IMG/VR virus record: IMGVR_UViG_3300020578_000040 | Location: 1 to 64,000 of that record | From: a virus | Length of the DNA stretch: 64,000 nt | Reading direction: 5' to 3' (one strand) | Shown here: piece by piece, positions 6,696-27,213 of the stretch | Numbering within the stretch: the stretch's first letter is position 1 | Layout: every line of letters begins with the position of its first letter | Made by a program: the position numbers and the translations under genes | Notes under the pieces: model-generated | The model's database searches: none | Told to the model about the DNA's origin: nothing | The model's input: only the letters and a program-made list of their open reading frames with translations

Positions 6696-6766
6696 CTTTT
6701 CTCCTTATGGTTCAGTTTTACTTCCGTCTTGCCATACTGGCACCCGTGACACTAGCATGTCAAATC

Positions 6767-6976
6767 ATGGAACACACCGATGCACGCCTAAATATTCTCA
6801 AGTCTGTGGCAAGGGTTCTGGTGGACTTCGCCCTTGAGGATGACCCCGATGCCGATGCCACGGAACTGGAGGACCTGTTCCTGGATGTGGCCGAGAGCAT
6901 CTTCGATGAGGTGGCACTGGAGATTGTAAGCATCAGCGGCGACCTGGCGACCGTGACGATGCGACTCAACGGATGA
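6767..6976 (+). CDS. small acidic hypothetical protein
   Basis: ATGA coupling to deaminase. Confidence 0.55.
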   Translation: MEHTDARLNILKSVARVLVDFALEDDPDADATELEDLFLDVAESIFDEVALEIVSISGDLATVTMRLNG

Positions 6977-9609: not shown

Positions 9610-9824
9610 AGCCCCGCTTTTTGTTTTCCGCTGGGATGGCTGTTGGGCCTCGATGATTTCCCACCATCATGGATTCTAGCCCCGCTCCCTCGATGAAAGC
9701 AATTCGACTGCCGGGGCTGCGAAGCGACACGCCACCACGGGGCTTGCGGCCGGCGAACCGCGCGTATCGCCCACACGCCGGCAGGATCGGCGCGTATCCC
9801 CGTTCACCCCGGATTCGCGCGTAT
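9610..9824 (+). repeat. regulatory module 1 (AGCCCCGC boxes + 3x GCGCGTAT)
   Basis: A boxes 9610, 9678, inverted 9711, 9737; B boxes 9760, 9790, 9817. Confidence 0.75.
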
Positions 9825-10635: not shown

Positions 10636-10890
10636 AGCCCCGCACATAAAGGAAGGCAGGAAGCCCCGCGCTCACTCGACCAAGCGGGGCTGCGGCTCAC
10701 CGCGCGTATGCCGGCGCGTCCGCGTGTCGCGCGTATGCGTGAGTCACGGCGCGTATCGTGGCAGGGCAGGAACGGCGCGTATCTCGCCCCCTCTCCCCAC
10801 CCTCCCCATTCTATGGCGGCGACCCTCTCGCCGTCCACCGGACACCCTGCTAGGAAGGTCACGGTGAGCATAAGTCCTGCTAGATGGCAC
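10636..10890 (+). repeat. regulatory module 2
   Basis: A boxes 10636, 10662, inverted 10684; B boxes 10702, 10729, 10749, 10775. Confidence 0.8.
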
Positions 10891-10997
10891 ATTCTGAGCA
10901 TGATTTGACTCGTCCCCTTGGTGCTGATAGGTTCAGGGTTGTCGGAGCAACCGAGCAACGACACGGGACACACTCCCGAGACCACAGGAGGACGGAC

Positions 10998-11126: not shown

Positions 11127-11220
11127 GCGGTCGGGGTGGGGGCGCAAGCCCCCGCCCCACCCCCTCGGGGAACTGTGCCACACCCTCATGACAGACTGAC
11201 CTCAACAGAAAGGAGCCACC

Positions 11221-11403
11221 ATGTGGCAGGAAGCAAGATGCAAGGGCAAGACCGAACTGTTCTTCGCCCCCCACGGGGAGCGCGAGCAGGCACGGAACGA
11301 GCGAGTGAGCAAGGCTCTCGCGCTCTGCGGAGTCTGCCCCGTCCGTCAGCAGTGTGCCGACGCGAAGGGCGACAACGAGGGAATCTGGGGTGGGGTCGCA
11401 TGA
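11221..11403 (+). CDS. whiB: short WhiB-like Fe-S protein
   Basis: Four Cys (C...CxxC...C) and GIWGG turn; lacks C-terminal helix. Confidence 0.8.
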   Translation: MWQEARCKGKTELFFAPHGEREQARNERVSKALALCGVCPVRQQCADAKGDNEGIWGGVA

Positions 11404-11456
11404 CCCCACCTCACCACCCCGGCAAGATCGAACACCCAACCCAGAAAGGAAACCCC

Positions 11457-11747
11457 ATGAAGAGCATCACTGTCAAAGACCGTGAGTACCCGATCGAGGA
11501 GGTCGAGGTCCCGGAAGGAACCCTGCGATTCGTCACCGCCACGGTGCAGTTCGACGACGACGACACGCCCCTCGATGGCGCGATCATCGCCATCGGAACC
11601 GAGTTCGACGAGTTGGTGACCGCAGAGGCGGCATCCGACGAACTGCTCCGGTTCGATTTGTCGATCTTCTTCTACTGCGCCGACGAGGACGAGTTCATCG
11701 ACCTGGCTGGGAACGGAGTCGCCGGCATGGAGTGGCGGATCGTCTGA
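11457..11747 (+). CDS. acidic hypothetical protein
   Basis: RBS AGAAAGGA. Confidence 0.7.
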   Translation: MKSITVKDREYPIEEVEVPEGTLRFVTATVQFDDDDTPLDGAIIAIGTEFDELVTAEAASDELLRFDLSIFFYCADEDEFIDLAGNGVAGMEWRIV

Positions 11748-11831
11748 CCGACTGGACAGGCTCCCCTGCCACTGCTAGAATCAGTGGTGGGGAAGCCGTC
11801 CCCCTACCTACTACCGAAAGAAAGGAACCCG

Positions 11832-11960
11832 ATGAACCGCAAGAAGTGGAACGAGCAAGATCGATTTGCTTTCGCTACCCAGCGTCTGCGAGCATCGACG
11901 ATGCCGAACAAGAAAGCACAGGCTCGCAAGAGTGCCTGTCGAAAGTGGAGGGCAGAATGA
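11832..11960 (+). CDS. 42-aa basic peptide
   Basis: RBS AGAAAGGA after promoter; MNRKKW...RKWRAE. Confidence 0.6.
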   Translation: MNRKKWNEQDRFAFATQRLRASTMPNKKAQARKSACRKWRAE

Positions 11961-12205
11961 ACTACTACCAAATCCGGGCGCTCGTCCGAGTCGTGTTCTG
12001 GGGAGCGGTCCTGTTCCTCGCCGGCACGGGGTGCGCGAAACTGGTCGAGATGGCTAGCCTCACCGCCGACAACCCGTGCGCGGTGAACGTGAACCGTGAC
12101 TTCACATGGACGACAAACGCGCCACTCAACATCGACCTGTGCGATCACCCCGAGGGGATCATGCTGTTCGATGACGGCCACTGGGAATGGGACTACGAGG
12201 GATAG
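11957..12205 (+). CDS. membrane-anchored hypothetical protein
   Basis: ATGA coupling, N-terminal TM. Confidence 0.6.
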   Translation: MNYYQIRALVRVVFWGAVLFLAGTGCAKLVEMASLTADNPCAVNVNRDFTWTTNAPLNIDLCDHPEGIMLFDDGHWEWDYEG

Positions 12206-12231
12206 GAGGCCTCGGCCCAACCAGGGCCGGA

Positions 12232-12520
12232 AGCCCCGCCTCGATCATTGTAACGACACATCGAGGTCGTAAGCCCCGCTCACGCTGGTGACCAGCGGGG
12301 CTCGAGGGCCGGCAGAGAATACGGGGCTCTCGCCCACCGCGCGTATCCTCGCTCGCCGTGAGCGCGCGTATCGCCAGACCGGCGCGTATGTACGGAACCG
12401 GCTGAAACCGCGCGTATCCCACCGGCTCGTCCTGTCCTATCTATGCCCCCCAACCTAGCAGACCGAGCCACGGTAGGCACAAGAGCAGGGGTTTCGGTGC
12501 GTTTGCCCTGCTAGATGGCA
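12232..12520 (+). repeat. regulatory module 3
   Basis: A boxes 12232, 12272, inverted 12295, 12321; B boxes 12339, 12364, 12382, 12410; CACGGTAGGCAC near 12469. Confidence 0.8.
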
Positions 12521-12596
12521 CGATTTGACTCGGCTCCTTAGGGCTGATAGGTTCAGGTTTGTCGGCAACACCGCCGACCGAAGCAAAGGAGCCACC

Positions 12597-12863
12597 ATGC
12601 TGTGGAGGCAGGTACTCACCACCATCCAGTCCGACGACCTGAGCGTCTGCCCGCCCGACCTGCGGGACGAGATTCGTCAGGCCTGTGACGAACTCATGGC
12701 CGTGAACGTGGGCGAACGCACCACCAGCGTCGGACTCACGACCCGTCAGGTGTTCGACCTCGCCCGTCGGTTCGCCACCTCGCCCGACCTCCGTGAGGAG
12801 TCGCTCATCTGGAAGCGGCACATCATCCGGCACTACTGCTGGGTCTACCGCCGACCGATTTGA
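12597..12863 (+). CDS. hypothetical protein
   Basis: RBS AAAGGAG; stop codon lies in the next -35 box. Confidence 0.7.
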   Translation: MLWRQVLTTIQSDDLSVCPPDLRDEIRQACDELMAVNVGERTTSVGLTTRQVFDLARRFATSPDLREESLIWKRHIIRHYCWVYRRPI

Positions 12864-12934
12864 CAGTCCCCTCTACCCCTGATAGGTTCAGGGGTGGAGG
12901 GAACACCACCCACCACCAACCCCGAAAGGAAGCC

Positions 12935-13147
12935 ATGCCCACCATGCCCATGCCCACCCTGTCCCCCGAGGCCGACGCTCGGCTCGTCATGCCCCGAGCG
13001 TACCTCGCTCAGGCTCGTTCCTACTGTGCCGAGGTGTACGCCGACGCTGACTCCACGCTCACCGAGAAGTGGGAGGCCTCAGCCCTGCTCGCCACGGCGG
13101 AGAGCAACTTCCGCACCGCCCTCACTCGGGAGTTGGTGGGGCGATAA
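12935..13147 (+). CDS. hypothetical protein
   Basis: RBS GAAAGGA. Confidence 0.65.
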   Translation: MPTMPMPTLSPEADARLVMPRAYLAQARSYCAEVYADADSTLTEKWEASALLATAESNFRTALTRELVGR

Positions 13148-13196
13148 GCCCCACCCACCCCGAACCCATCTCACCAACCCAGAAAGAGAGAAACCC

Positions 13197-13556
13197 ATGA
13201 CCACACTCACCCAGTCAGTCATCGACTACCTGAACGCCCGCAAGGCCTGCGAGGAAGCGGAGCAGGCGAAAGCCCGAGCCGAAGCCATGCTCCAGCAGGC
13301 CTACGCCAAAGCCGGCGTGGACTTCGCAGTCGTGGACGGCACGAAGGTCGCCATCGTCAGGGGCGAGCGTCCTAAGTACGACCCGACCCGACTGGCGGAA
13401 CTCGTCACCAGCGAGGTGTTCGCCAGCGTCACGAAGCAGGAAGTGGACGGCACGAAGTGGAAGGCGGCTCTGACCCTCGGGAACATCGCCCCCGAGGTGG
13501 CGGAAGCCGTGACCACGCTGACCACCTACCAGCAGGTGCGAGTCAGCAAGGTCTGA
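13197..13556 (+). CDS. coiled-coil protein, Gam/Gp157-like (paralog of 21896..22285)
   Basis: N-terminal helix plus beta region, KQxVD, QVRV shared with paralog. Confidence 0.6.
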   Translation: MTTLTQSVIDYLNARKACEEAEQAKARAEAMLQQAYAKAGVDFAVVDGTKVAIVRGERPKYDPTRLAELVTSEVFASVTKQEVDGTKWKAALTLGNIAPEVAEAVTTLTTYQQVRVSKV

Positions 13557-13665
13557 CCGAGGGACGGGGGGCGAAAGCCCCCCACCCTCCCCCGATTTGA
13601 CAGTCTCCCTTACCCCTGATAGATTCAGAGGTGAGGGGAAACCCCAACAGCAGAAAAAGGAAACC

Positions 13666-14100
13666 ATGACCACCATCACCCAGATCGCGAGCACGATCGA
13701 CGAACTTGTCCACCGAGAGTTGGGCGACAACCAGTTCGACATGTACAGTCGCCTGTATGTCACCGACCCCGATGGGGCTTGGATGATCGGACAGTCGCAC
13801 GACCCGTACGACATGTTCGACGGCGACACCGCCGTCACGCGCCCCCGTGGGGCGACCGCCGTGGGCTTCGTGTGTACGGGCTGGGCGGCTCCGATCACGG
13901 ACACGCCCACGGACACGCCCCCGAGCCAGAGTCCTGATCGTATCCGAGTGCGAATCACCGTCGCCTACAACGGCTCCGAGTGGACGACCGTAATGCGTCG
14001 CGAGGGCGAGAACACGCCGGACATCATGGAGGAAGCCGGAGCAGGCCCGCTTGCCGACGCAATCGAGTTCTGGTGGGCAGAGGCCGAGGTCGCCTTCTGA
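13666..14100 (+). CDS. hypothetical protein
   Basis: Promoter plus RBS. Confidence 0.7.
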   Translation: MTTITQIASTIDELVHRELGDNQFDMYSRLYVTDPDGAWMIGQSHDPYDMFDGDTAVTRPRGATAVGFVCTGWAAPITDTPTDTPPSQSPDRIRVRITVAYNGSEWTTVMRREGENTPDIMEEAGAGPLADAIEFWWAEAEVAF

Positions 14101-14170
14101 CCCACTCCGAGGCTGGGGGGCGCAAGCCCCCTAGCCACCCCAACATCAACTATCACCCCGAGAGGAACAC

Positions 14171-14377
14171 ATGAACATCACCATCACGACCACCACCGAG
14201 ACCCTTCAGAACATCGAGACCCTGCTCTGGGACTACGAGCGAGCGCTCGATGATCACCTGTACCGAATCTTCCCCGAGGCCTCGACCCGTCAGGCTCTGA
14301 ACGACATCCACACTCTGCGGGCCGACCTGAACCGAATGATCGGTCAGGCCGAGCGTCAGATTCTCGCCAAGCAGTGA
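14171..14377 (+). CDS. hypothetical protein
   Basis: RBS GAGAGGA. Confidence 0.65.
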   Translation: MNITITTTTETLQNIETLLWDYERALDDHLYRIFPEASTRQALNDIHTLRADLNRMIGQAERQILAKQ

Positions 14378-14393
14378 TCGAGGTGTAGTCCCC

Positions 14394-14603
14394 TCAGGCT
14401 TGAGCGTCCCACTTACCGAGTGGGCATCGGGCCGAGGGGACACGCACCTTGAGTGGCATCACGCACCCGCACTCACGGCACTGGCTCAGCGCATTGAGTC
14501 GATCGCAGTCCATACAGATCGCGAGCCGGCTCTCCTTGACCTCGTGTGATACGCGCACCCAGGGCAGTCGAAGAATGTCGAGTGGTGTCGCGTCGTCGTC
14601 CAT
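14394..14603 (-). CDS. small Zn-finger protein (CxxC...CxxCGC...CPLGKW)
   Basis: Common phage Cys-rich family; antisense to array. Confidence 0.75.
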   Translation of the reverse strand: MDDDATPLDILRLPWVRVSHEVKESRLAICMDCDRLNALSQCRECGCVMPLKVRVPSARCPLGKWDAQA

Positions 14604-14606
14604 GGA

Positions 14607-14820
14607 AGCCCCGCTTACTACAATAGCAGCAGAGCCCCGCGTGCATTCGTTCTGCCGGGGCTGCAGCGCGCGCGATCGCGCGTATCTCAGGATCGGCGCG
14701 TATCCCTGGGGCCGACGAGATTGGCGCGTATCTCCACCCTGCCGGCCCCATCTATGAAGGGCCGGCCCGGCCCCCTATCTATGGCCGGCCCCTATCTATA
14801 GGGCCACGGTTGGCACATGG
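14607..14820 (+). repeat. regulatory module 4
   Basis: A boxes 14607, 14633, inverted 14655; B boxes 14678, 14696, 14724; CCCC(T)ATCTAT x3; CACGGTTGGCAC. Confidence 0.8.
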
Positions 14821-14893
14821 CCGGTTTGACACCGACCCTTGGGACTGATAGGTTCAGGTTTGTCGGCAACCCCGCCGACTCAGAAAGGAAACC

Positions 14894-15037
14894 ATGACCA
14901 CCGACACCTGCGAACACTGCCAGGAAGAGCAAGGCCACTACAGAAAGTCGTTCGACACTGTGCTCTGCGACGAGTGCTTATGCGCTTGGGCAGACGGAGT
15001 GCGCGAGCGCGAGCGCGACCTCGACTGGGGAGACTGA
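14894..15037 (+). CDS. 47-aa CxxC...CxxC peptide
   Basis: RBS AGAAAGGA. Confidence 0.65.
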   Translation: MTTDTCEHCQEEQGHYRKSFDTVLCDECLCAWADGVRERERDLDWGD

Positions 15038-15042
15038 CAACC

Positions 15043-15207
15043 ATGCACACCATCAACCTCCGCGCTGGCGACAACTACCTCGTCCTGACGGACGACGAGA
15101 GCAACTTCGTGGACTTGTTCTACAACTACGAGCAGGCCCAAGAAGTTGCCAACCTGATCCTGGAGGAAGGCTCCAGCAAAGTCCAGGTCATCAGGATCAC
15201 CCTCTGA
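15043..15207 (+). CDS. hypothetical protein
   Basis: RBS GGGGAG. Confidence 0.6.
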   Translation: MHTINLRAGDNYLVLTDDESNFVDLFYNYEQAQEVANLILEEGSSKVQVIRITL

Positions 15208-15259
15208 CCAATCCCGGCCGGGGGCGCAAGCCCCCGGCCACCAAACAGAAAGAGAAACA

Positions 15260-15544
15260 ATGGGACACCAATCAGCAACCGAGATGGCAGGAATGCCGAT
15301 CAGCCTCGAACAGCAACTCACGTGGCACCTCACGTCGAACCACTACCCGCCGGTTCCGCTCAGCATGATCGAGCCGTGCATGAAGGCCATCGACGCGATC
15401 GTCATGGACGAGCCGAACACGCTCATCGAGTTGCCGGACGGAATCACCTACCGTGACTCGACTCACGCGCCGGCGTGGGCGATCGCGGAGGGTCACCACC
15501 TCCAAGCGTTCATCGACTCCTGCTTCGACGAGTACGAAGACTGA
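15260..15544 (+). CDS. conserved phage hypothetical protein (HLTSNHYPPVP)
   Basis: RBS; recognisable motif. Confidence 0.7.
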   Translation: MGHQSATEMAGMPISLEQQLTWHLTSNHYPPVPLSMIEPCMKAIDAIVMDEPNTLIELPDGITYRDSTHAPAWAIAEGHHLQAFIDSCFDEYED

Positions 15545-15616
15545 GTTGACAACCTCCCCTGCTACTGTAGATTCAGTAGCAGGGGGCCCAACCCCATCAA
15601 ACAGAAAGAAGGAATC

Positions 15617-15862
15617 ATGTCCGACCACATCCAGCGCATCCAGCCCATCCTGCCCAACGGCGCGATGTTCTCCATCGTGGAGTCGTTCGGCCGCAAAGAG
15701 GTGGCTGTTCTTCAGAACGACGAGTTCGTCTCGCCCACCGAGTGGGCCGACATCGACACCGGCGACGACATCGTACGCCTGTCCGACGTGGCCGACGAGT
15801 TGGCCGTGTACCTCATGAAGGCCATCTCGTGGGGCCTCAACAACACGGAGGTGGCGCGATGA
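15617..15862 (+). CDS. hypothetical protein
   Basis: Promoter plus RBS. Confidence 0.65.
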   Translation: MSDHIQRIQPILPNGAMFSIVESFGRKEVAVLQNDEFVSPTEWADIDTGDDIVRLSDVADELAVYLMKAISWGLNNTEVAR

Positions 15863-16089
15863 GCCTGGGCGCGCTCGCACAGGACATCCTCGACGACAAG
15901 TGGGTTCTCTGCTCGATCACGGAGGCTCTAGAGCACGCGCTCGATGAGCACCTGATCGACAGGACCTACCTCGTCTACGACGAAGCCGGCGACAGCAGGC
16001 CCGCCACGGACATCGAGTTTCTCATGGCGGTTCAGGAGATACTCGTCGCGCTCAATGCCGGCGCCATCGGCGACTCAGCCGTAGCATGA
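15859..16089 (+). CDS. hypothetical protein
   Basis: ATGA coupling, RBS GGAGG. Confidence 0.65.
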   Translation: MSLGALAQDILDDKWVLCSITEALEHALDEHLIDRTYLVYDEAGDSRPATDIEFLMAVQEILVALNAGAIGDSAVA

Positions 16090-16144
16090 GGTGAAGGGGG
16101 TCAGGGCAACCTGGCCCCACTCGCCCGCCCACCATCTGGGCTAG

Positions 16145-16380
16145 AGCCCCGTCCCCATACGAGGGTCGAGAGCCCCGCGCACATCGCTAGATGCGGGGCT
16201 GCCGAAGCAAATAACTAGCGGGGCTGCCGGCCAAAACCGCGCGTATCAAAACCGCGCGTATCAAAACCGCGCGTATCCCAGGATGGCGCGTATGCCGGCA
16301 CAGCGCGTATGCCCTCGCGCGTGCGCACGGTGTGCGTATGTGCGTGCGTGCGCCCGTTCCTCTCTCCCTCCACCACCTCG
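16145..16380 (+). repeat. regulatory module 5
   Basis: A boxes 16145, 16171, inverted 16193, 16218; B boxes 16239, 16254, 16269 (perfect 15-bp tandem), 16286, 16303. Confidence 0.85.
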
Positions 16381-16462
16381 GCCCGATTTGACAGCGACCC
16401 CTGGGGCTGATAGGTTCAGGGTTGTCGGGGAGAACGGCTCCCCAACAAGAAAGGAGCGCACA

Positions 16463-16783
16463 ATGCGCTGGAACGCAAGCACTCAGGACGTGGTGGACCA
16501 CCTCGTCTTCTCAGGAGCGGACACGTACGACTGGTATCGCCAGTTGGATGTGGACGGCGACGATGCCATCACCATCGGGATGGACGATCCGAACGACGAG
16601 GACGGTGCCATCTTCACGACGATGTCGGCTACCGCCATCCGCCGGCTGGCGGAGCAGTTCGTCAAGGAGGAGAAGCCCGGCTACCGGGTTGTCGCCCGGG
16701 CGATCCAGGACGACGACTTCGATTCGGACGCCGCCGACGTGGTCCTTCAGTGGGCTGTGTTCGGGACGCTCGTCTACGGCTGA
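16463..16783 (+). CDS. conserved phage hypothetical protein (D.DAADVVLQ..VFG.LVYG)
   Basis: C-terminal motif; RBS AGAAAGGAG. Confidence 0.75.
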   Translation: MRWNASTQDVVDHLVFSGADTYDWYRQLDVDGDDAITIGMDDPNDEDGAIFTTMSATAIRRLAEQFVKEEKPGYRVVARAIQDDDFDSDAADVVLQWAVFGTLVYG

Positions 16784-16856
16784 TTTGACTCAGCCCCCTG
16801 CCACTGATAGATTCAGTGGTGGGGGGCAACCCCACCAACAACAGAAAGGAAACCCA

Positions 16857-17216
16857 ATGAACATCCTGTTCATCCACGACGACTCCGAGCGAGGACTCGT
16901 CAATGTCCGCAACCTTGCGCCCGAGCACATCGACATCAACTCGATGGTCGGCGGTTGGTTCGACTGCGTACGGTCCCGTGACGGTGCGATCGTCGGGTAC
17001 GTCAATGACACCGGCTTGACCGATGGCATGGCGCCCAACCTCGTCGCATCGCTCCTGTTCGCTCGTCCGCTCTACGGTCCCTGCGTGGTCGTGGGCGGTC
17101 TCAACGAAGCCGGCGAGTACGACGGCGACAACCACGACGTGCCGGAGAGCGTCATCCGGGGAGTGCTCCCGCTGAACGACATCTTCCGGATGCGGCCCGA
17201 GTCCACCACGGTCTGA
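16857..17216 (+). CDS. DUF3846-like protein
   Basis: VGGWFD...YVNDTG...PN.VAS...GPCVVVG. Confidence 0.7.
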   Translation: MNILFIHDDSERGLVNVRNLAPEHIDINSMVGGWFDCVRSRDGAIVGYVNDTGLTDGMAPNLVASLLFARPLYGPCVVVGGLNEAGEYDGDNHDVPESVIRGVLPLNDIFRMRPESTTV

Positions 17217-17284
17217 TTTGACCGCTCCCCCTGCGCCTGATAGATTCAGGTGTGGGGGGAGAACAACCCCACAGAGAGGAACCC

Positions 17285-17464
17285 ATGACGAAGTTTTACA
17301 TGGTCGAATACATCGTCCGTACCTACGTCCACGCCGACGACTCAGATCAGGCGCGCGAACTGTCGGCACGAATGCTCGACGAGAAAGAAGCACGAGGCGA
17401 ACTCGCCCGCGAGTGTGTCGAACTCGACTGGTTCGAGTTGGACGAAGAAGGAGAGATGATCTGA
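17285..17464 (+). CDS. acidic hypothetical protein
   Basis: Promoter plus RBS. Confidence 0.65.
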   Translation: MTKFYMVEYIVRTYVHADDSDQARELSARMLDEKEARGELARECVELDWFELDEEGEMI

Positions 17465-17467
17465 ACC

Positions 17468-17701
17468 ATGTTCCGTGAACCAATCGAGGAGCCAGAGATG
17501 ACCAAACTCAACCCCCAGGAGCGAGCCCTGCTCATCCTGAACAACGCCAAGCGTGACATCACCAACATCATGGCTCTCCCCATGGAGGACTACGAGGTGA
17601 TCGAACGGCAACTACGTGACTCGATCGCGTGGCTCATGTCGGGAAGCCGGCACAGGCCTCTGATCCGCGTCGCCTTGACAAAGGGCGAAGAGCCCTTCTA
17701 A
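17468..17701 (+). CDS. hypothetical protein
   Basis: Operon packing. Confidence 0.55.
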   Translation: MFREPIEEPEMTKLNPQERALLILNNAKRDITNIMALPMEDYEVIERQLRDSIAWLMSGSRHRPLIRVALTKGEEPF

Positions 17702-17743
17702 CATCAACCAACAGCAACACCCACCTATAGAAAGGAACTACAA

Positions 17744-17953
17744 GTGGAAGCAACAGAAACCAAGAAGAAGATCACCGATACGAACCTCGATGAGTTTAAG
17801 CACCGAATGGGCACCATCGACGTGGAGGGACTGATCGTCTCGATCACCGTGACGGACGCTCGATTCCGCTACGGACACATCGACCTTAAGGTCACGCCCA
17901 TCTCGGGCCGTGGCGAGCGTTGGGTCGAGAGCACCAAGGTGACTCTGATCTAA
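17744..17953 (+). CDS. hypothetical protein
   Basis: RBS AGAAAGGA, GTG start. Confidence 0.65.
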   Translation: MEATETKKKITDTNLDEFKHRMGTIDVEGLIVSITVTDARFRYGHIDLKVTPISGRGERWVESTKVTLI

Positions 17954-18181
17954 TCAGAACAGAGTTAGAGACATGTCAGGGGGGTTGTCTTTCAGATCAA
18001 CACAGGTCTGACAGGCAACCCCGCCGATCATCTTCAGCATCTTCACATCGCCGGCATTGAGTTTGCCCTTCTTCGTGATGCGGGTATAGCCCTCGATGCG
18101 CAGCCACACGTCCTTCTCAATCCGAAGAATGTCGCGGCCACACAGGTCGCACTGATACAGCGGGGGAAGATGTCCGTCCAT
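17954..18181 (-). CDS. small CxxC...CxxC protein, antisense to array
   Basis: CDLC...CQTC. Confidence 0.6.
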   Translation of the reverse strand: MDGHLPPLYQCDLCGRDILRIEKDVWLRIEGYTRITKKGKLNAGDVKMLKMIGGVACQTCVDLKDNPPDMSLTLF

Positions 18182-18197
18182 CGCTCAATCGTATCGA

Positions 18198-18455
18198 AGC
18201 CCCGCACTCAACTCAAGACGGAAGCCCCGCTTTCCCAGGGGAGGAGTCTGTCTAGCGGGGCTGCGAATCGCTCGATCCTTACGGGGCTGCGGCGCGTAAC
18301 CGAGGCCCTCGACGCCGGCCACCAACCGCGCGTATCCGACACCCGAGCACCGCGCGTATCCTGAACCGCGCGTATGCGCACGCACGGTAGGCACATGGGC
18401 GCGTATGCGCTCGCGCGCGCGTGTGCGTGTTCCTCTCTCCCCCCTCCACGGAGCG
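18198..18455 (+). repeat. regulatory module 6
   Basis: A boxes 18198, 18223, inverted 18255, 18281; B boxes 18328, 18352, 18368, 18399; CACGGTAGGCAC. Confidence 0.85.
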
Positions 18456-18619
18456 TCGATTTGACACGCTCACTACGGTCTGATAGGTTCAGTGTTGTCG
18501 GGGAAACCGACACCCCCGAATCCCCTCCACGGAGCGTCGATTTGACACGGCACACTGTGGGTGATAGGTTCGGGGTTGTCGGGGAAACCTGACGCTACCT
18601 ACTACAGAAAGGAATCATC

Positions 18620-19141
18620 ATGATTTGTCGTTCATGCGACACGCCCGCAGTGGGCAAGAGTGCCTACTGCTCCACTCACCGCGCCGAGGCACGGGCCGCG
18701 TGGAAGGCCAAGATCAGCGACGAGGCCGAGGCCCGCAAGGCCCGCAAGGCCGGTCACGCCGAACTCTGGTCGCGCGCCGTTCAGGCCGGTATCAAGGCGT
18801 GGCACGAAGCCATCCCCACCCCCATGCTCGTGGGCACGGCGAAGGGTCTGTTCGACGACTCGTTCGACGAGACCAAACCCGTGTACCACGTGAGCGAGGG
18901 CGTGTGCGGTTTCGCGTCGCTCGTCGTGAAGCCCGCGAACTCGTCGTTCGCTCACTGGCTCAAGGCCAACGTGCGCACGAGCAAGCACTACGGCGGTGGC
19001 CTCTCCGTGTGGTCGTCCGTCATCGTGCCGGAGGACGCGCGCAGTCAGTCCTACGAGCGCAAGGACGCGGCCATGCGCGCCGTGGCCGAGGTGCTCCGCG
19101 AGGCCGGTATCAAGGCCTCGTGCTGGAGCAGGCTCGACTGA
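18620..19141 (+). CDS. conserved phage hypothetical protein (GVCGFA...QSYERK..A...SRLD)
   Basis: Recognisable family motif; tandem promoters upstream. Confidence 0.75.
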   Translation: MICRSCDTPAVGKSAYCSTHRAEARAAWKAKISDEAEARKARKAGHAELWSRAVQAGIKAWHEAIPTPMLVGTAKGLFDDSFDETKPVYHVSEGVCGFASLVVKPANSSFAHWLKANVRTSKHYGGGLSVWSSVIVPEDARSQSYERKDAAMRAVAEVLREAGIKASCWSRLD

Positions 19142-19248
19142 GCGAGGGCGGGGGGCGCAAGCCCCCCACTCCCCCTCGATTTGACAGACCCACCTACCGC
19201 TGATAGATTCAGTGGTGGGAGCAATACCCCAACCAAGAAAGAGGAACA

Positions 19249-19614
19249 ATGACCATCACCAACATCACGGGAACCGTGCTCATCGGACACGTGGGCGTGG
19301 ACTCCGGCCAACTCATGATCTGCGACCCGTGCTACATCAAGGCCGACGACTGGGCCGACCAGCCGTACGCCCCCGCAAACGCCGTGGACGGCAAGTACCC
19401 GTTCACCTACAACGGCGCGTGTGGCGCGACGCTCAATGAGGACAGTGCTGGGCAGTTGGGCACGTTCGATACCGGCATCGCGTTCGCATCGGGCTACGGC
19501 GACGGCACCTACCCCGTGTACGCCACGTACGTCGATGGGCGCATCGCCAGTGTCGAGATCGTGCTCATCAGCGAGGACGAGGACGACGAGGACGAGGAGG
19601 AGTACCTCCTCTGA
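19249..19614 (+). CDS. DUF4241-like protein
   Basis: GVDSGQLMICDP...SGYGDGTYPVY. Confidence 0.7.
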   Translation: MTITNITGTVLIGHVGVDSGQLMICDPCYIKADDWADQPYAPANAVDGKYPFTYNGACGATLNEDSAGQLGTFDTGIAFASGYGDGTYPVYATYVDGRIASVEIVLISEDEDDEDEEEYLL

Positions 19615-19688
19615 TTTGACAGCGACCCCTGCCCCTGATAGATTCAGGGGTGGGGGAAGCAATACCCATCAGCAACAGAAAGGAAATC

Positions 19689-19964
19689 ATGACCACCATC
19701 ACCACCATCAAGCAACGGAACATCGACGCCGGCCACTACTTCTTCGACACAAAGGCCATGCGGTTCTTCAACAGTCGCGTGAGTCGCACCACCTACGGCG
19801 ACTTCTTCGTGACCAGCGAGAAAGGCCCCGACAAGGTGCGCCGGTACACGGTGCGCTACAGCGACCCCGCCACCGGCCACATCAACACGGTCGGAGAGTT
19901 CCAGCAGTTCGACACGCTGTGGGGCGCGCTCGCGGAAGCGCGACGCCTCTACCTCGCGATCTGA
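19689..19964 (+). CDS. conserved phage hypothetical protein (GHYFFD..AMRFFNSR)
   Basis: Promoter plus RBS. Confidence 0.75.
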   Translation: MTTITTIKQRNIDAGHYFFDTKAMRFFNSRVSRTTYGDFFVTSEKGPDKVRRYTVRYSDPATGHINTVGEFQQFDTLWGALAEARRLYLAI

Positions 19965-20293
19965 TCGTGCGCTCGTTGTCGGCTCCGTGGCTCTGGTCGT
20001 TCGTCGTCGTGTACGAAGGACGCCCAGAGTCGAGGTTCCGGTTTGGCTCCCCCTGCCGGCTTGTGCGTTCCGTTGATCTTGCCGTGCATGTGTTACTGCC
20101 CGAACTTCTGACACCGCATCTTCCGATCCTGGCGTGCTACCTCCGTTCGACTTCCCCTAGATGGGGTCGAGCGTGGCGTCGCTGGTAGACCCAAATGGCC
20201 AGTTGCTGATTTGACAACCTGTCCCTGCCACCACTAGGATTAGTGGTGGTGGGGGCAACCCAACCAAATACCTACTACAGAAAGGAATCCCCA

Positions 20294-20758
20294 ATGGGAC
20301 TCGATCAGTACCTACACGCAAAGAAATACACCTCGCCCGCCGAATGGCGACCCGAGGCCGAGCGCAAGGCTTACGCCGACATCATGAAGGCGGTGCAAGT
20401 CAGCGAGTTCATGGATGACCACTTGCCCTCCGCAACCGTCGAAGTGATGGTGGCCTACTGGCGCAAGCAGAACGCCATCCACAAGTGGTTCGTGGACAAC
20501 CATCAGGGTGGCGAGGACGACTGCCGTGAGTCCTACGTCGGACGTCAGGGGCTGGAAAGCCTGCGCGACGTCTGTCGCGAGGTGCTGGCCGACCACTCGA
20601 AGGCCGACGAACTCCTGCCCACGGAGTCCGGGTTCTTCTTCGGTGGCACGGAGTACGACAAGTGGTACTTCGATGGGCTGGCCTACACGGTCGAGCGTAT
20701 CGAGAAGTTGCTCACCATGCCCGACGACTGGGACTTCTACTACCAGTCATCGTGGTGA
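20294..20758 (+). CDS. conserved phage protein (MGLDQY...YWRKQNAIHKWF...YQSSW)
   Basis: Recognisable family motif. Confidence 0.8.
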   Translation: MGLDQYLHAKKYTSPAEWRPEAERKAYADIMKAVQVSEFMDDHLPSATVEVMVAYWRKQNAIHKWFVDNHQGGEDDCRESYVGRQGLESLRDVCREVLADHSKADELLPTESGFFFGGTEYDKWYFDGLAYTVERIEKLLTMPDDWDFYYQSSW

Positions 20759-20829
20759 CCCGCTCAGGGGTCGGTCTCTTCGGAGGCCGACCCCACCATC
20801 ATCTACAAACACAGAAACAGGAGAATGAA

Positions 20830-20994
20830 ATGACACTCACCGAATGCGACGTCCAGCGGATCGAAGACCTGCTGAAGGAACTCCCCGCCATGATCGAAGA
20901 GCATGGATACCCGTATGCGCTAGGCGGTGCTGAGTATTGGCTGAAGCGCATCGTCGAATTGTCCGCGCACCAGAAGAAAGGAATTGGGCAATGA
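20830..20994 (+). CDS. hypothetical protein
   Basis: RBS AGGAG. Confidence 0.6.
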   Translation: MTLTECDVQRIEDLLKELPAMIEEHGYPYALGGAEYWLKRIVELSAHQKKGIGQ

Positions 20995-21215
20995 ACAACG
21001 AGGAAGCCAAGTGCAAGGGCAAGGGCAAAATCTTCTTCGCCCCTCACGCAGAGCGACCCCAGGCCCGCGTCCGTCGCGAGGCCATCGCCATCGCCCTCTG
21101 CCTGTCGTGCCCACTCGTCGATGAGTGTCGAGTGGCTGGCGCGAATGAGGAGCACGGCATCTGGGGTGGCACCACCGAGCGCGACCGCGGAATGGTCAAG
21201 GAGCGAGCCCGCTAA
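20991..21215 (+). CDS. whiB: WhiB-like transcription factor
   Basis: Four Cys, HGIWGGTTERDR. Confidence 0.85.
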   Translation: MNNEEAKCKGKGKIFFAPHAERPQARVRREAIAIALCLSCPLVDECRVAGANEEHGIWGGTTERDRGMVKERAR

Positions 21216-21230
21216 ATAGCCAGCCATTAT

Positions 21231-21246
21231 CCGAACAAATGTTCGG
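21231..21246. promoter_or_regulatory. LexA/SOS-box-like palindrome CCGAAC-AAAT-GTTCGG
   Basis: Matches Gram-positive/actinobacterial CGAAC-N4-GTTCG. Confidence 0.5.
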
Positions 21247-21316
21247 GTGTTGCTGGATGACGGCCGGCGTTCTCGGTTAGGGTGTGCTCGACGCACAACC
21301 TCCATGTGTGTCCGAG

Positions 21317-21590
21317 AGCCCCGCCGTTTCTTTCCTCCTTTCTGGACGGCGGGGCTTCTCGTATTCTGGAGCCCCGCACACTGCGCTGCCCTGGAGCCCC
21401 GCTCGCACTCGATCCAGCGGGGCTCGCGCGGCCACGGACCAGCGGGGCTGCGGCGTTCGCGCGTATGTCTTACGCGGCCTCACGATTCGCGCGTATGTAA
21501 TGGGCCGGCAGATTCGCGCGTATGTCTCCCACTTCGCGCGTATGTAGGCCACGGTAGGCACATGACGATCCACGCGCGCGTAATCTTTGT
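21317..21590 (+). repeat. regulatory module 7
   Basis: A boxes 21317/21349(inv), 21370, 21395, inverted 21417, 21442; B boxes 21459, 21489, 21516, 21536; CACGGTAGGCAC. Confidence 0.85.
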
Positions 21591-21895
21591 GGTGTCCCCT
21601 CGATTTGACAGAGGGTGGCAGGGCTGATAGGTTTGGGTTTGTCGGGGCAACTCGACACCAAGCCAACTCGATTTGACCAGCCCTGTATGGTCTGATAGAG
21701 TTCGGTTTGTCGGGGCAACTCGGCAGGCCTGCTATGACGCACTATCTAAGTGACTCGCCCGATTTGACGGTGACTCACCCACCTGATAGATTCAGGTTTG
21801 TCGAGTTCTCCCGACACCTAGCCGATTCGATTTGACAGGCTCACACCTGTCCGATAGATTCGGAAACGCAATACCTACTACCGAAAGGAATACCA

Positions 21896-22285
21896 ATGTC
21901 CCTTACCATCGACCGTGCTATTGCCGATCTCTTGGTTCTCCGTGACAAGGAGAAGGAGATCGAGCAGGCCAAGCGAGACACGGAGGCTCTGCTCGTCGCC
22001 CTGTTCGACGACGCAGGAATCGACCACTACGAGACCACCGACAAGGTGCGTGTCGCCGTGGAGAACCGTCCCCGTCGCTCATTCGACATGGACAGTCTGC
22101 TGGCGAACCTGCCGGCGACCGTCCTCAACATGGTGCTGAAGCAGACCGTCGATTCGTCGGCGTTCGACAGTGCCGTGGAGACCGGCCTCGTCCCGACCCC
22201 CGTGGTCGAGCAGGCCGTCACGATCTCGTATTCCACGCAAGTGCGTGTGTACGGGCAGAAGGGTGTTCGGGGCGACCGCTCCTGA
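21896..22285 (+). CDS. coiled-coil protein, Gam/Gp157-like (paralog of 13197..13556)
   Basis: Four tandem promoters upstream; shared motifs. Confidence 0.65.
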   Translation: MSLTIDRAIADLLVLRDKEKEIEQAKRDTEALLVALFDDAGIDHYETTDKVRVAVENRPRRSFDMDSLLANLPATVLNMVLKQTVDSSAFDSAVETGLVPTPVVEQAVTISYSTQVRVYGQKGVRGDRS

Positions 22286-22430
22286 CACCCCTCACAACCT
22301 GACATTTGGTCATGTCAGGCTCCTTTCCGCATGACCCCTCACCCCGTCGATTTGACAGGGGTGGGGGGAATGTGGGAGACTTCATTCGGAGCCAACCACT
22401 CCACCTACCTACTACCGAAAGGCAAACTCA

Positions 22431-23156
22431 ATGACCACCACCAATACCGCCATGCCTCAGTGCTGGCAAGATGTACACGACTGCCTCGCCTCGGGTGTCG
22501 ATCGCCTCGTGCTGTTCGGCCCTCCGGGGACTGGCAAGACCTTCGCCGGTCTCACGATGGGCGATGTAACCACCGGAGCGTTCCGCGTCGTCTGTAACGA
22601 GGAGATGACCTCGGCCGATGTGACCGGACACTTCCAGCCCACGGGCAACGAGTGGACTTGGAACGAGGGCGCGGTTCTCCGTGCTTGGAAGGGCAACGGC
22701 TCTCACGGCGGTCGCGTCGTGGCAGACGAGATCGACCGTGCGTCGGGCGATGTGTTGTCGCTCCTGCTCGCCATGTTCGACTCGCCGGAGTCGGCCTCTT
22801 GGACGCACCCTGCGACCAAGCAGACCTTCCGTCCCCTCCCCGGATTCAGCGTCATCATGACGACGAACATCGAGGACATGAGGGAACTCCCGACCGCTCT
22901 CAGGGATCGGTTCCCCGTGGCTATTCGTATCAACCGCCCACACCCGAACGCCCTGTTGGCCCTGCCGGAGGACTTGCGTGAGGTGGCCTCAGCCAGCGTG
23001 GACGCAGACGACGAGCGACGGTACTCGATTCGTACCTTCCAGTCATACGCCAAGTTGCGTGGAACGCTGGGTTCGGAGCGAGCCGCGACGCTGGTGTTCG
23101 GCAAGAACGCCAAGTCCATCATGGACGCCATCAAGATCGAGGAGGTCTCCAAGTGA
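22431..23156 (+). CDS. MoxR/CbbQ-type AAA+ ATPase
   Basis: GPPGTGKT, DEIDRA, TTN, ALRDRF. Confidence 0.9.
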   Translation: MTTTNTAMPQCWQDVHDCLASGVDRLVLFGPPGTGKTFAGLTMGDVTTGAFRVVCNEEMTSADVTGHFQPTGNEWTWNEGAVLRAWKGNGSHGGRVVADEIDRASGDVLSLLLAMFDSPESASWTHPATKQTFRPLPGFSVIMTTNIEDMRELPTALRDRFPVAIRINRPHPNALLALPEDLREVASASVDADDERRYSIRTFQSYAKLRGTLGSERAATLVFGKNAKSIMDAIKIEEVSK

Positions 23157-24622
23157 CCACCAAGATCAACGCTGGTGTGGTCACCCCCAAGGGGGTGGCC
23201 ATGCCGGAGTGGCTCACTCGTGAGGACTCCCCCCAAGGCCCGTGGACTGTCAAGGAAGGCAACGCCACTCGTGGCGAGGCGTTCACCAACCGTATCGAGC
23301 GTCTCATGACGGTTCCCTACGGCGACGACGACCTCTCCCGTGCGGTTCGCGCCCACGAGATGATGCACGCCAAGGTGTCCCCGGAGTCGATGGCTTCGTT
23401 CGACGGGTTCTCGATTTCGCCGGAGGCCATTCGGGCTTCGGAGGAATTTCGTGTGAACACGCTCTGCTCGCTCGCCGGCTTCGACATGGACAATCTGCGT
23501 GACGGGTCGGAGTCACAGACTGGCAAGCGACTGGCCGAGAACAAGGACTGGAACAACACCGTCCTGTTCATCGCGGCTACCGCCGGAACCAAGGCCTGCA
23601 AGGATGTGCTTCGTGGTATGCGTACCGTGAGTCCCGAAATGGCTGACAAGGCCAAGCGTGTCGAGAAGGCTCTGCTCGATTCGTGGAAGTCCGAGATCAA
23701 GCGTTTCGGCCCTGTGCGTGACTCTCGTGCGGTCACCTACGCTCGTCGTGAGATGGCTAGCACCACGCCCGTGGTCTACAAGGCGGACGGCACGCCGTCT
23801 CGTCCCGTCAATCACGACACCGTTCTTGCCGAGGGCGAGCGCATCCTCCCTGAGGGGGCGAAGTTCACGCTCAGGTTTGCTTCGCTCGTGGACGCTCTAC
23901 TCAAATACGACGACTCCGTGGACGGACACGAAGGCGACGGCGAGCCGAGCGACGAGGAACTCGACGCTGTGACCAAGACGGCCGGTGGCAAGACTTGGGC
24001 GCGACTCATCGTCGATCGTTCGGTTCCGCTGACTCGTCGAGTCAAGGGCAACCTCGGTCGTCGGCGTATGGCCACCAACATCGGTGTCTCGCCTCGTCGA
24101 ATGGAGCGACTGCTGACCGACCCCGACAAGCGTGTGTTCGACCGCACGATCAAGGGGCAGGGCGGTGTCGTTCTCATCGACCAGTCCGGCTCGATGAGGC
24201 TGAACGACGACGATGTGATGGCTCTCGTGAACGAGGCTCCCGGCTGTGTGGTCGTGGGCTACTCGCACCGACCCAACTCGTCGGGTGTCCCGAATGTGTG
24301 GATTCTCGCCGACCGTGGCAAGGTCTGTAGCGCGGTTCGCTCCGGCAACGGTGGCAACGGCGTGGACTACCCTGCCTTGGTGTTCGCCAACAAACTTCGC
24401 AAGAAGGGCGAGCCGTTGGTGTGGGTCTGCGACGGTCATGTCACGGTGTCCGATGACGGGTTCGCACCTGCTCCGCTTCGCAAGCAGGTGGCCGGCTTCG
24501 TTCGCAAGAATCAGGTTCACATGGTTCCGACCGTGGGTGAGGCTGTGACTGCGTTGCGACGCGCCAAGTCGGGCGTTCGTCTCACGACCAAGATCGTCGG
24601 TTCGGAACTCTCCGCGTCCTGA
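23153..24622 (+). CDS. HExxH metallopeptidase-like + VWA domain protein
   Basis: AHEMMH; MIDAS DQSGSM; WVCDG; coupled to AAA gene. Confidence 0.8.
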   Translation: MTTKINAGVVTPKGVAMPEWLTREDSPQGPWTVKEGNATRGEAFTNRIERLMTVPYGDDDLSRAVRAHEMMHAKVSPESMASFDGFSISPEAIRASEEFRVNTLCSLAGFDMDNLRDGSESQTGKRLAENKDWNNTVLFIAATAGTKACKDVLRGMRTVSPEMADKAKRVEKALLDSWKSEIKRFGPVRDSRAVTYARREMASTTPVVYKADGTPSRPVNHDTVLAEGERILPEGAKFTLRFASLVDALLKYDDSVDGHEGDGEPSDEELDAVTKTAGGKTWARLIVDRSVPLTRRVKGNLGRRRMATNIGVSPRRMERLLTDPDKRVFDRTIKGQGGVVLIDQSGSMRLNDDDVMALVNEAPGCVVVGYSHRPNSSGVPNVWILADRGKVCSAVRSGNGGNGVDYPALVFANKLRKKGEPLVWVCDGHVTVSDDGFAPAPLRKQVAGFVRKNQVHMVPTVGEAVTALRRAKSGVRLTTKIVGSELSAS

Positions 24623-24760
24623 CCGCGAGAGGGGTGGGGCAGGGTTTGTTCTCCTTGTCCCCACCCCACCCCTCGATTTGACCCAGCCTCACCGCTGGTG
24701 TAGGATCGAGTTTGTGGGGAAACCCACACCTATCAAGTACCTACCTACAAAGGAGTCATC

Positions 24761-25537
24761 ATGCCGAACTGGGCATACAACTCGATGACCGTCCGCTCGA
24801 CTTCCGAGTCCAAGCAGACTGCCATCCACGACCTTCAGGAGTTCCTGGAGTTCATCAAGGTCACCGACCCCGAGACTGGGGCTATCAGTTACGACCTGAC
24901 CAAAGCACACCCTATGCCCGAGGCACTCATGGGCACTCGCTCACCTGTCCCCTACTCGCCTGAACCGCACCCCAATTGGGTCGAGATGTTGGCGGAGGGA
25001 CAGATGACGCAGGAGCGTTTCGACGAACTCTGTGCCGAGAACATCAAGTTCTACGAGGCTGGGCAGAAGGCATACGCCGAGACCGGCTACACCGACTGGT
25101 ACGACTGGGCGAACAAGGAGTGGGGAACCAAGTGGGCACCTCGCTTCGAGCACAACGACCCCGAGTTGGACGAGGAGCACGAACAGGTCTCGATGTACTA
25201 CGAGACTGCGTGGTCGCCGGCAGATGGGCTGGTTTCCAAGATGAGCGAACGCTTCCCGAACTTGGTGTTCGAGGTGTCCGTGACAGAGGAAGCAAACCTG
25301 TATGTCGGTGCGTCGCACTTCCACAACGGCGTGGCGACGATGTTCTACACCTCGTTCGATGACAAGGATTTGCCCGACCGCTACACGAAGCGGTACGCCG
25401 AGATTGTCGAACACGAGGCGAAAGACGACATCGACTGGGATTCCTACTTCGAGAAGATGAGTGACCTCCAGTCCGATGTTCTCGAATACTGCGAGAATCA
25501 GATTGCGCTCATGGCCTCATTTGAGGTGGGGTCATGA
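24761..25537 (+). CDS. DUF1281/YubB ferredoxin-like protein
   Basis: MPNW.YN...WYDW...WGTKW...ETAWSP. Confidence 0.8.
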   Translation: MPNWAYNSMTVRSTSESKQTAIHDLQEFLEFIKVTDPETGAISYDLTKAHPMPEALMGTRSPVPYSPEPHPNWVEMLAEGQMTQERFDELCAENIKFYEAGQKAYAETGYTDWYDWANKEWGTKWAPRFEHNDPELDEEHEQVSMYYETAWSPADGLVSKMSERFPNLVFEVSVTEEANLYVGASHFHNGVATMFYTSFDDKDLPDRYTKRYAEIVEHEAKDDIDWDSYFEKMSDLQSDVLEYCENQIALMASFEVGS

Positions 25538-26517: not shown

Positions 26518-26535
26518 TCACTGGTGGTAGGTGAC

Positions 26536-26570
26536 GCAGAGGGGCGGGCCGAAAGGCTCGCCCCTTTGTG
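26536..26570. terminator. bidirectional hairpin between convergent genes
   Basis: AGGGGCGGGCC-GAAA-GGCTCGCCCCT. Confidence 0.65.
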
Positions 26571-26842: not shown

Positions 26843-27213
26843 TGTGCCTTTCCTTTCAGGATTTGATGGACGCGCTGACGCGACAAACCTACTCGATCCG
26901 CGATCTGCTGTAGGCTCAGTCGCATCCCGCGCAGCGTGTGGACATCACGGTGCATAGCGATGTTCATCTTCGCCCCAGGCGCACGAGCCTCCCACTCCCA
27001 TGAAGGGATGTGCTCGAAGGCCTGAGCCTGCTCGATGGTCAAGAGCCCCGCTCGGTAGCGACTCTTGATGTAACTGGCCCACCGGCCGATGGCGACTCGT
27101 TCGCCGGCCGCACCGCGCGTATTGTGCGACAGCGGGATATTTGTGTGGCCATTCTCTCGCGCGTATTTCTCGATCATGTGAACGCGCGTATGGAACTGTT
27201 CGTCTCGGGTCAT
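26839..27213 (-). CDS. helicase-associated (HA) domain + sigma70-r4-like HTH protein; candidate regulator
   Basis: Y..ENGHTNIP...IGRW...YRAGLL....W.W then SLQQIADRVGLSRQRVHQIL. Confidence 0.75.
   Translation of the reverse strand: MTRDEQFHTRVHMIEKYARENGHTNIPLSHNTRGAAGERVAIGRWASYIKSRYRAGLLTIEQAQAFEHIPSWEWEARAPGAKMNIAMHRDVHTLRGMRLSLQQIADRVGLSRQRVHQILKGKAQ

Follow-up and report, generated by a model that had tools for sequence, protein, structure and literature searches.

Promoter-early stem-loops (PeSLs) have been described in the T4-type phages RB49/phi1, T4/PST and KVP40/nt-1 (Arbiol et al. 2010, PMC2839356; Comeau et al. 2014, PMC4122927). They are intergenic, reaching from the stop codon of one gene to the start of the next, and combine a strong sigma-70-type promoter with a stem-loop made of G/C runs that mostly lies between the promoter boxes or over the -10 box; the published figure includes G-T pairs (PMC2839356, PMC4122927). 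Both promoter and terminator/attenuator activity have been measured for PeSLs, and recombination between copies shuffles small genes (PMC2839356, PMC4122927). Here we describe nine modules of this kind in the first 64 kb (the window) of the 81,366-bp IMG/VR record IMGVR_UViG_3300020578_000040, which has a CheckV completeness of about 54 %. In each of these modules, which we call class H, the -10 box of a SigA-type promoter forms the loop of a long hairpin.

The primase/helicase of this virus has its nearest cultured relatives in Arthrobacter phages (about 33 % identity), followed by Gordonia and Microbacterium phages, and on this ground we take the virus, recovered from a lake metagenome, to be actinophage-like. 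As in the PeSLs, a sigma-70-type early promoter lies in an intergenic module that fills the interval between one gene's stop and the next gene's start, a stable stem-loop overlaps the promoter boxes, many similar copies sit among small genes mostly of unknown function, and gene insertions and deletions between relatives (one relative compared) are bounded by modules. Residence in a T4-like myovirus is not shared: host and lineage are unrelated, the phage is high-GC and the promoter is of the actinobacterial SigA type, so that the modules are analogues of PeSLs and not homologues. While PeSLs fall into five subclasses, the geometry here is uniform, with the whole spacer pairing with the initially transcribed region; the stems are long (11-17 bp), there is neither an AT-rich upstream region nor a U/T-rich tail, the G arm is able to fold into a hairpin at the 5' end instead, and a second, hairpin-less promoter class with GCGCGTAT boxes is found alongside. 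The modules show every PeSL feature that can be tested on sequence, and we regard them as an actinophage version of the PeSL and not as a new kind of element.

An earlier note on this DNA had named nine internal promoters whose -10 box sits in a hairpin loop, and all nine coordinates are confirmed. Each module is a composite intergenic unit of about 68 nt in which a stem continuous without bulges closes a loop of 4-7 nt. The C-rich 5' arm is the promoter spacer, and the G-rich 3' arm (consensus TCAGNGGTGGGG) consists of the discriminator and the first transcribed bases. Folding energies (dG) range from -19 to -32.6 kcal/mol, with z-scores of -3.5 to -6.6 against dinucleotide shuffles. The nine copies lie within 8.5 kb and have a mean column identity of 76 %; a covariance model built from them, from which all bit scores below are taken, finds no other copy in the 81-kb record. 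The modules match no Rfam family. The downstream start codon follows the -35 box by about 66-83 nt.

All nine modules are on the + strand. The first (11748..11815; 69.3 bits) has the -35 box TGGACA at 11753, the -10 box TAGAAT and a hairpin at 11764-11792 with 11 bp, or 15 in the minimum-free-energy fold (-26.5 kcal/mol, z -4.98); the upstream frame 11136-11747, a mechanical call of ribosome-binding site and open reading frame, ends 5 nt before this -35. In the second (12855..12922; 81.2 bits) the TGA stop of gene 12597-12863 lies within the -35 box, TTGACA at 12860 (a gap of -4 between stop and -35), which is followed by TAGGTT in a 14-bp hairpin at 12869-12901 (-31.1 kcal/mol, z -4.08). The third (13592..13659; 77.9 bits), with its -35 at 13597 and -10 TAGATT, has one internal mismatch in its hairpin (-20.5 kcal/mol, z -3.5); here a GAAA-tetraloop hairpin at 13562-13587 lies upstream and the stop of gene 13197-13556 is 40 nt away. 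The fourth (15541..15607; 67.5 bits) combines a -35 at 15546, a 16-bp spacer and TAGATT with a 13-bp hairpin at 15555-15586 (-25.2 kcal/mol, z -5.28), 1 nt from the stop of gene 15260-15544.

The same short gap of 1 nt separates the upstream stop from the fifth module (16780..16847; 80 bits; -35 TTGACT at 16785, -10 TAGATT, 15-bp hairpin at 16793-16827, -32.1 kcal/mol, z -6.64), from the sixth (17213..17280; 78.3 bits; TTGACC at 17218, TAGATT, 16 bp at 17225-17261, -32.6 kcal/mol, z -6.55), which follows the DUF3846 gene 16857-17216, and from the eighth (19611..19678; 82.1 bits; -35 at 19616, TAGATT, 13 bp at 19626-19656, -31.5 kcal/mol, z -6.23), which follows gene 19249-19614. Three hairpins that the earlier note had quoted, those of modules four to six, match the window letter for letter. 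The seventh module (19176..19243; 73.7 bits; -35 at 19181, TAGATT, 11 bp at 19193-19219, -19.0 kcal/mol, z -4.6) is again preceded by a plain hairpin, with a GCAA tetraloop at 19148-19169, and lies 39 nt from the stop of gene 18620-19141. The ninth (20206..20274; 64.7 bits) has its -35 at 20211, an 18-bp spacer, the -10 box TAGGAT and a 17-bp hairpin at 20220-20257 whose register is shifted by 3 (-31.0 kcal/mol, z -4.45). Between the DUF7447 gene and this last module lies a T-rich stretch of 246 nt (19965-20210) with no convincing + strand gene.

The promoter in all nine modules is a near-consensus SigA-type promoter, GATTTGACA followed after 17 bp by the extended -10 TGATAGATT, with a TTGAC-type -35 at each of the nine coordinates and a TAnnnT -10 box 16-18 bp further on. 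In the window the pattern TTGAC-N15-20-TAGRTT has 18 matches against 0.15 expected, 17 of them on the + strand, and the longer consensus GATTTGAC-N15-TGATAGRTTCAG has 11 matches against 0 expected. This anatomy of consensus -35, 17-bp spacer and extended -10 (TGn-TAGRTT) is matched independently by a consensus scan.

Folding all candidate promoters separated them into two discrete classes, H with the long hairpin and S with a short core. Stems around candidate -10 boxes are bimodal, at most 7 bp or at least 11 bp, which supports class H as a discrete class. In class H the spacer pairs with the 11-17 bases 3' of the -10 box and the -10 hexamer is the loop; in class S (10905, 12525, 14826, 16388, 18461, 18542, 21605, 21764 and others) pairing is limited to a 4-bp CTGA/TCAG core. 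Both classes have the same -35 and -10 boxes and keep the core CTGA-TAGAT-TCAG.

Class S promoters have features of their own. The predicted +1 is followed by a conserved TTGTCGG...CCGACA hairpin whose loop varies (10935-10965, 12555-12580, 14857-14880, 16418-16448, 18492-18510, 18573-18590 and 21636-21655) and which is loosely like a 17-bp palindrome, TGTTCGGNNNCCGAACA, found in Cluster O mycobacteriophages (PMC4351075). Most of them have a cluster of three to five GCGCGTAT boxes 80-200 nt upstream, and such clusters are never found at class H. The box occurs 39 times against 1.7 expected, nearly always on the + strand, with clusters at 9760-9824, 10702-10782, 12339-12417, 14678-14731, 16239-16310, 18328-18406, 21459-21543 and 27115-27242, and these are accompanied by AGCCCCGC hairpins and by CTATCTATG and CACGGTAGGCACATG boxes. 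This arrangement suggests a separate, protein-mediated control of class S promoters.

The pairing in class H is supported by covariation. Among the nine window copies 88 % of the cells pair and 8 of the 16 pairs have changed on both sides, a level reached in 0 of 500 shuffles; sliding the partner by 1-3 columns lowers the pairing to 43-55 %. A single metagenome scan with the promoter pattern yielded a relative, L020 (Ga0315904_10009438, 12.7 kb), plus a near-identical fragment, L018; L016, L017 and L019 from the same scan have one promoter-like match each and no long hairpin. L020 is syntenic with positions 13640-25329 of the window at 72-83 % identity and holds eight class H copies. With these the set grows to 17 copies, with 87.8 % of cells paired and double changes in 9 of 16 pairs (again 0 of 500 shuffles), so the earlier claim that stems differ between copies with pairing kept holds on both sets. 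Covariance scores are 64-82 bits for the nine window copies, 50-72 for the eight L020 sites and at most 35 for class S promoters.

Orthologous pairs give individual examples of this. The module at 15546 and L020 10573 differ by two double compensatory changes, the arms being CTGCTACTG/CAGTAGCAG in the window and CTGCCCCTGA/TCAGGGGTGG in L020; the boxes of the L020 copy have drifted to TTGCCA and TAAACT. Between 17218 and L020 8275 two G.U pairs become A-U, and between 20211 and L020 5128 one U.G pair becomes C-G.

The loop obeys a different constraint. Over all 17 copies it varies only as TAnnnT (TAGATT, TAGGTT, TAGAAT, TAGGAT, TAACCT, TAAGTT, TAGTAT and TAAACT), and the -35, the extended -10 and TAnnnT are kept in 17 of 17. 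Such variation reflects the need for a -10 box and not for a particular RNA loop, which places the promoter under selection beside the pairing. Taken together, these patterns indicate that promoter and pairing are both selected.

The earlier note had also pointed to G-T wobbles on the + strand as a sign of a single-stranded fold. They are present, with 35 G.U against 4 A.C cells in the inner 13 pairs, but the argument is weaker than claimed because two conserved columns supply 27 of the 35; with these left aside, the count over all 16 pairs is 13 G.U against 12 A.C. One of the two stem positions is U.G in 16 of 17 copies and the adjacent one is G.U in 11 of 17 (A-U in 5, G-C in 1), and this tandem on the + strand becomes a tandem of A.C mismatches if the other strand folds. 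The mean RNA folding energy is -27.5 kcal/mol for the + strand compared to -22.6 for the - strand. The plain hairpins of the neighbourhood have GNRA or UUCG tetraloops (GAAA, GCAA, UUCG) only when read on the + strand, which lends independent support to a + strand RNA fold. The evidence thus favours, and does not prove, a fold that acts in the + strand RNA.

The long hairpin keeps a regular position relative to an upstream gene. All 17 class H modules start at most 41 nt after a same-strand stop codon, and in 13 of the 17 that stop is at -4 to +7 nt of the -35, which bears out the earlier remark that several abut or overlap the upstream stop; the TGA is often inside or beside GATTTGAC. In the other four, a plain GNRA hairpin intervenes (13597, 19181 and L020 6340) or the 246-nt gap precedes (20211). 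That gap is absent from L020, where the copy at 5128 is 1 nt after the stop of the DUF7447 gene. For comparison, nearly all of 19 hairpin-less promoters either have no such stop upstream or are separated from it by at least 55 nt, in most cases by more than 200; the one nearer frame lies in a repeat region of L020 and is probably a spurious call. The confinement of class H, and not class S, to the vicinity of upstream stops links the long hairpin to RNA arriving from the upstream gene.

Plain GC-rich hairpins with GNRA or UUCG loops and no U tract are found right after stops elsewhere on the + strand (10310, 11133, 13562, 14111, 15216, 16097, 19148, 20767 and 21704). The GNRA hairpins have 9-12 bp, shorter than class H stems. 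One of them, a GCAA hairpin at 15216..15239 (+) after the stop of gene 15043-15207, has no promoter, and L020 has a class H module at this very junction, which shows that both types of hairpin fill one functional slot. Another GCAA hairpin, at 14111..14136 (+), lies between two genes of one operon, likewise with no promoter and no U tract. As gene 14171-14377 downstream of it has no promoter of its own, such hairpins cannot terminate efficiently.

The explanation we favour, and to which we give somewhat better than even chances, is that each module is a PeSL-like joint in which a host SigA promoter overlaps a hairpin that serves the upstream message as 3' end, attenuator or processing site. 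With +1 placed about 7 nt after the -10 box (a prediction), the module's own transcript would start within the 3' arm, and only read-through RNA would carry both arms. In that RNA the hairpin would form right behind the upstream reading frame, in the slot held by plain GNRA hairpins elsewhere in the region, and would probably cap the upstream message, whether by attenuating transcription, by blocking 3' exonucleases or by being processed. The DNA would meanwhile restart transcription for the next gene from the embedded promoter. Among the options raised by the earlier note was a promoter joined to a terminator or processing hairpin, and this is the one that fits all of the anatomy and corresponds to the design described for PeSLs. 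As a side effect, the dispersed, nearly identical modules would serve as recombination sites through which small gene cassettes are gained or lost.

In the locally started transcript the G run would find its partner in a C run further downstream, and a small hairpin would form at the 5' end as in class S. The first 32 nt of class H transcripts are predicted to fold such a hairpin 0-3 nt from the 5' end (mean z -3.0), and the TTGTCGG...CCGACA hairpin at the 5' end of class S transcripts has a mean z of -2.5, both against mononucleotide shuffles. Since the G arm pairs with either the C-rich arm or the downstream C run, the two helices are mutually exclusive. It is conceivable, although we think it improbable, that the C-rich spacer arm, the shared G arm and the downstream C run form a deliberate RNA switch, or that a DNA-level supercoiling gate operates besides. 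With a switch, read-through would give the long 3'-end hairpin and local initiation the short 5'-terminal one, and otherwise identical downstream messages would differ in stability, processing or translation; a switch or gate of this kind would exceed what is described for PeSLs.

Several observations weigh against the PeSL-like joint. Two junctions of the window hold a plain GNRA and a class H hairpin in tandem, so that one does not simply replace the other. Hairpins of either type, class H or plain, lack a U tract, with 0-2 T among the first 12 nt behind the stem, and a terminator scan calls none of them. In vitro, intrinsic termination by mycobacterial RNA polymerase depends on a U tract (PMC3993855), and true termination at the modules is therefore doubtful. 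The 17 copies come from two related phages and their covariation events are not fully independent; the strand asymmetry, mostly that of the two wobble columns, may be inherited from one ancestral copy, and the - strand also folds, at the -22.6 kcal/mol given above.

A canonical intrinsic terminator shares with the modules a stable GC-rich hairpin right after the stop, but the 7-9 nt U tract that should follow is missing here, and we rejected it for that reason. The terminator scan finds a single canonical case, at 26535-26570 with a GAAA loop and a T-rich tail, which indicates that the missing U tract elsewhere is not a genome-wide habit. We infer that the role of the hairpins is attenuation, processing, or the marking or protection of 3' ends, and that they are not strong terminators.

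One alternative for the hairpin is an RNase III-type cleavage site at which a polycistronic early RNA is cut into single-gene messages. The downstream product would then start near the start of transcripts from the embedded promoter, which makes this a variant of the PeSL-like joint more than its opposite. Uninterrupted stems of 11-17 bp without a U tract, exceeding those of the plain hairpins, would suit such an enzyme, and with the predicted +1 lying in the 3' arm, a processed 5' end would fall at the same place as a primary one, and RNAs of either origin could form the 5' hairpin. RNase III substrates, however, typically span about two helical turns, which is longer than the class H stems, and the plain hairpin at an orthologous junction suggests that generic hairpin stability is what matters. 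We consider cleavage of this type unlikely, while rating it above the alternatives that follow.

Alternatively, control may act on the DNA, with a supercoiling-driven cruciform, or melting at the AT-rich -10 centre, gating the SigA promoter. In 17 of 17 copies the midpoint of the repeat falls exactly on the -10 box, this centre (TAGAT) is AT-rich, and both DNA strands fold (about -13 and -11.6 kcal/mol with DNA parameters). The - strand arm, however, has two adjacent A.C mismatches in mid-stem in most copies and the palindrome is therefore imperfect, and extrusion would make the template strand near +1 inaccessible to the polymerase. A purely DNA device does not predict that the hairpin should be restricted to sites close behind the end of a same-strand gene, and hairpin-less promoters with the same -35 and -10 boxes need no repeat. 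We accordingly hold a DNA gate to be quite unlikely, and the supercoiling-gated cruciform or N4-like promoter of the earlier note is not borne out, given the canonical SigA signals, the length of the stems and the A.C mismatches on the other strand.

It could also be argued that the module is a functionless quasi-palindrome, its symmetry kept by template-switch repair and its copies spread by duplication of an ancestral promoter. All copies are indeed paralogues at the 76 % mean column identity given above, and the wobble columns look inherited. The strict tie to an upstream same-strand stop, the pairing kept in orthologues whose flanks are 72-83 % identical and the survival of G.T wobbles, which template-switch repair would erase, make this very improbable. 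A palindromic operator, with a dimeric repressor or activator bound across the -10 box, is given slightly less credit still and was rejected. Such a position is frequent among operators, and the CTGA-TAGAT-TCAG core is common to both classes, but arms that differ with pairing kept (9 of 16 pairs double-changed) are unexpected for a reading of fixed half-sites, and in most copies the symmetry is broken at two positions (T.G and G.T).

N4 promoters have 5-7 bp stems, 3-nt loops and no -35 or -10 boxes, are extruded from supercoiled DNA and are read by the virion single-subunit RNA polymerase. That N4-type hairpin promoters or attC-like single-strand recombination sites account for the modules, which are folded, + strand biased and placed at cassette boundaries, is barely credible. 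The likeness to N4 early hairpin promoters (PMC4496689) is that a promoter coincides with an inverted repeat, whereas here canonical SigA boxes with extended -10 geometry stand 17 bp apart, the hairpin is much longer and its loop of 4-7 nt is the -10 hexamer; the N4 type was rejected on this difference in stem, loop and box geometry. PF00940 (single-subunit RNA polymerase) has no match in the 81-kb record, a result to be read with the control genomes being unmatched too and the record being about 54 % complete. Integron attC sites likewise are folded, strand-biased imperfect repeats at gene-cassette boundaries, and were rejected because the modules have no R''/L''-L'/R' boxes with GTTRRRY and no extrahelical bases and because each cassette has its own promoter. 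No PF00589 tyrosine recombinase is found in the 81-kb (incomplete) record, with controls matched in 14 of 14.

Comparison with this one relative, L020, shows what happens at the module boundaries. Module 16785 aligns with L020 9204 through its left flank and with L020 8709 through its right flank, and between these two L020 modules lie two small genes, that is, a two-gene insert relative to the window. The double alignment is the footprint expected of recombination between two repeats. Module 19616 is absent from L020, which has two extra translationally coupled genes in its place, and the small gene that follows module 11753 is located elsewhere in L020. Cassette exchange in these phages looks like ordinary homologous recombination between 68-nt repeats. 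The suggestion of attC-like boundaries thus fails as far as attC features are concerned, and the looser notion of cassette boundaries survives by this ordinary route.

A search of IMG/VR with the promoter pattern found nothing beyond this record, a megablast of the region against cultured phages gave no match, and Arthrobacter phage Tank has no such module. Homologues of the DUF3846 protein with 56-95 % identity are present in Logan/ENA assemblies, and 35 loci of its distant relatives have no such promoters. Among 74 loci (1.2 Mb) of relatives of a 489-aa protein, the model finds one copy, in the closest locus (L057, 59 % identity), where the hairpin is shifted by about 3 nt and the -10 box lies in the 3' arm; cases with 9-10 bp stems in these loci are at about chance level. 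Judged by these searches, the design is lineage-specific.

A different element was found in L085 at 6720-6785 (- strand) and identically in L123, both from 35 % relatives. It is an unrelated 17-bp hairpin with a TTTT tail right after a TAG stop, and its loop is the TATATT of a TTGACG-18-TATATT promoter. From its layout we take it to be an independent promoter-inside-terminator joint.

With these modules, the promoter-plus-stem-loop design of T4-like phages, which infect Gram-negative bacteria, is extended to a high-GC, actinophage-like virus of lake origin. Its form there is unusually regular, in that the loop always holds the -10 box. This supports a convergent origin of joints that stop or cap one message and restart the next, for packing and shuffling tiny early genes. 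The nine modules also offer a compact set of natural variants for asking whether, in Actinobacteria, hairpins without a U tract attenuate transcription or only stabilise RNA, and they are possible portable expression parts.

The modules belong to a stretch of tightly packed small + strand genes, from about 10.9 to 34 kb of the window, in a left part with a GC content of 57-64 % (about 60-64 % over 8 to 24 kb); structural and tail-fibre genes are on the - strand further right. Genes beside the modules encode 42-173 aa and have no Pfam match or match DUF families only, and the 173-aa protein has no relative in IMG/VR. A leader word, TACCTACTAC, is conserved just 5' of the ribosome-binding site in a subset of genes (window 11805, 18596, 20269, 21872, 22406, 27332 and 28639), with 10 matches against about 1 expected, and it also precedes genes in the 40 % relative L059.

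Two small reverse-strand genes, 14394-14603 (-) of 69 aa and 17954-18181 (-) of 75 aa, converge on the rows of + strand genes; they just precede two of the GCGCGTAT modules, and both positions are kept in L020. Further right, in a block of lower GC content (about 45 %), a gene at 46726-48201 (-) encodes a 491-aa protein that matches phrog_2928, annotated as tryptophan halogenase, with an E value of 8e-96.

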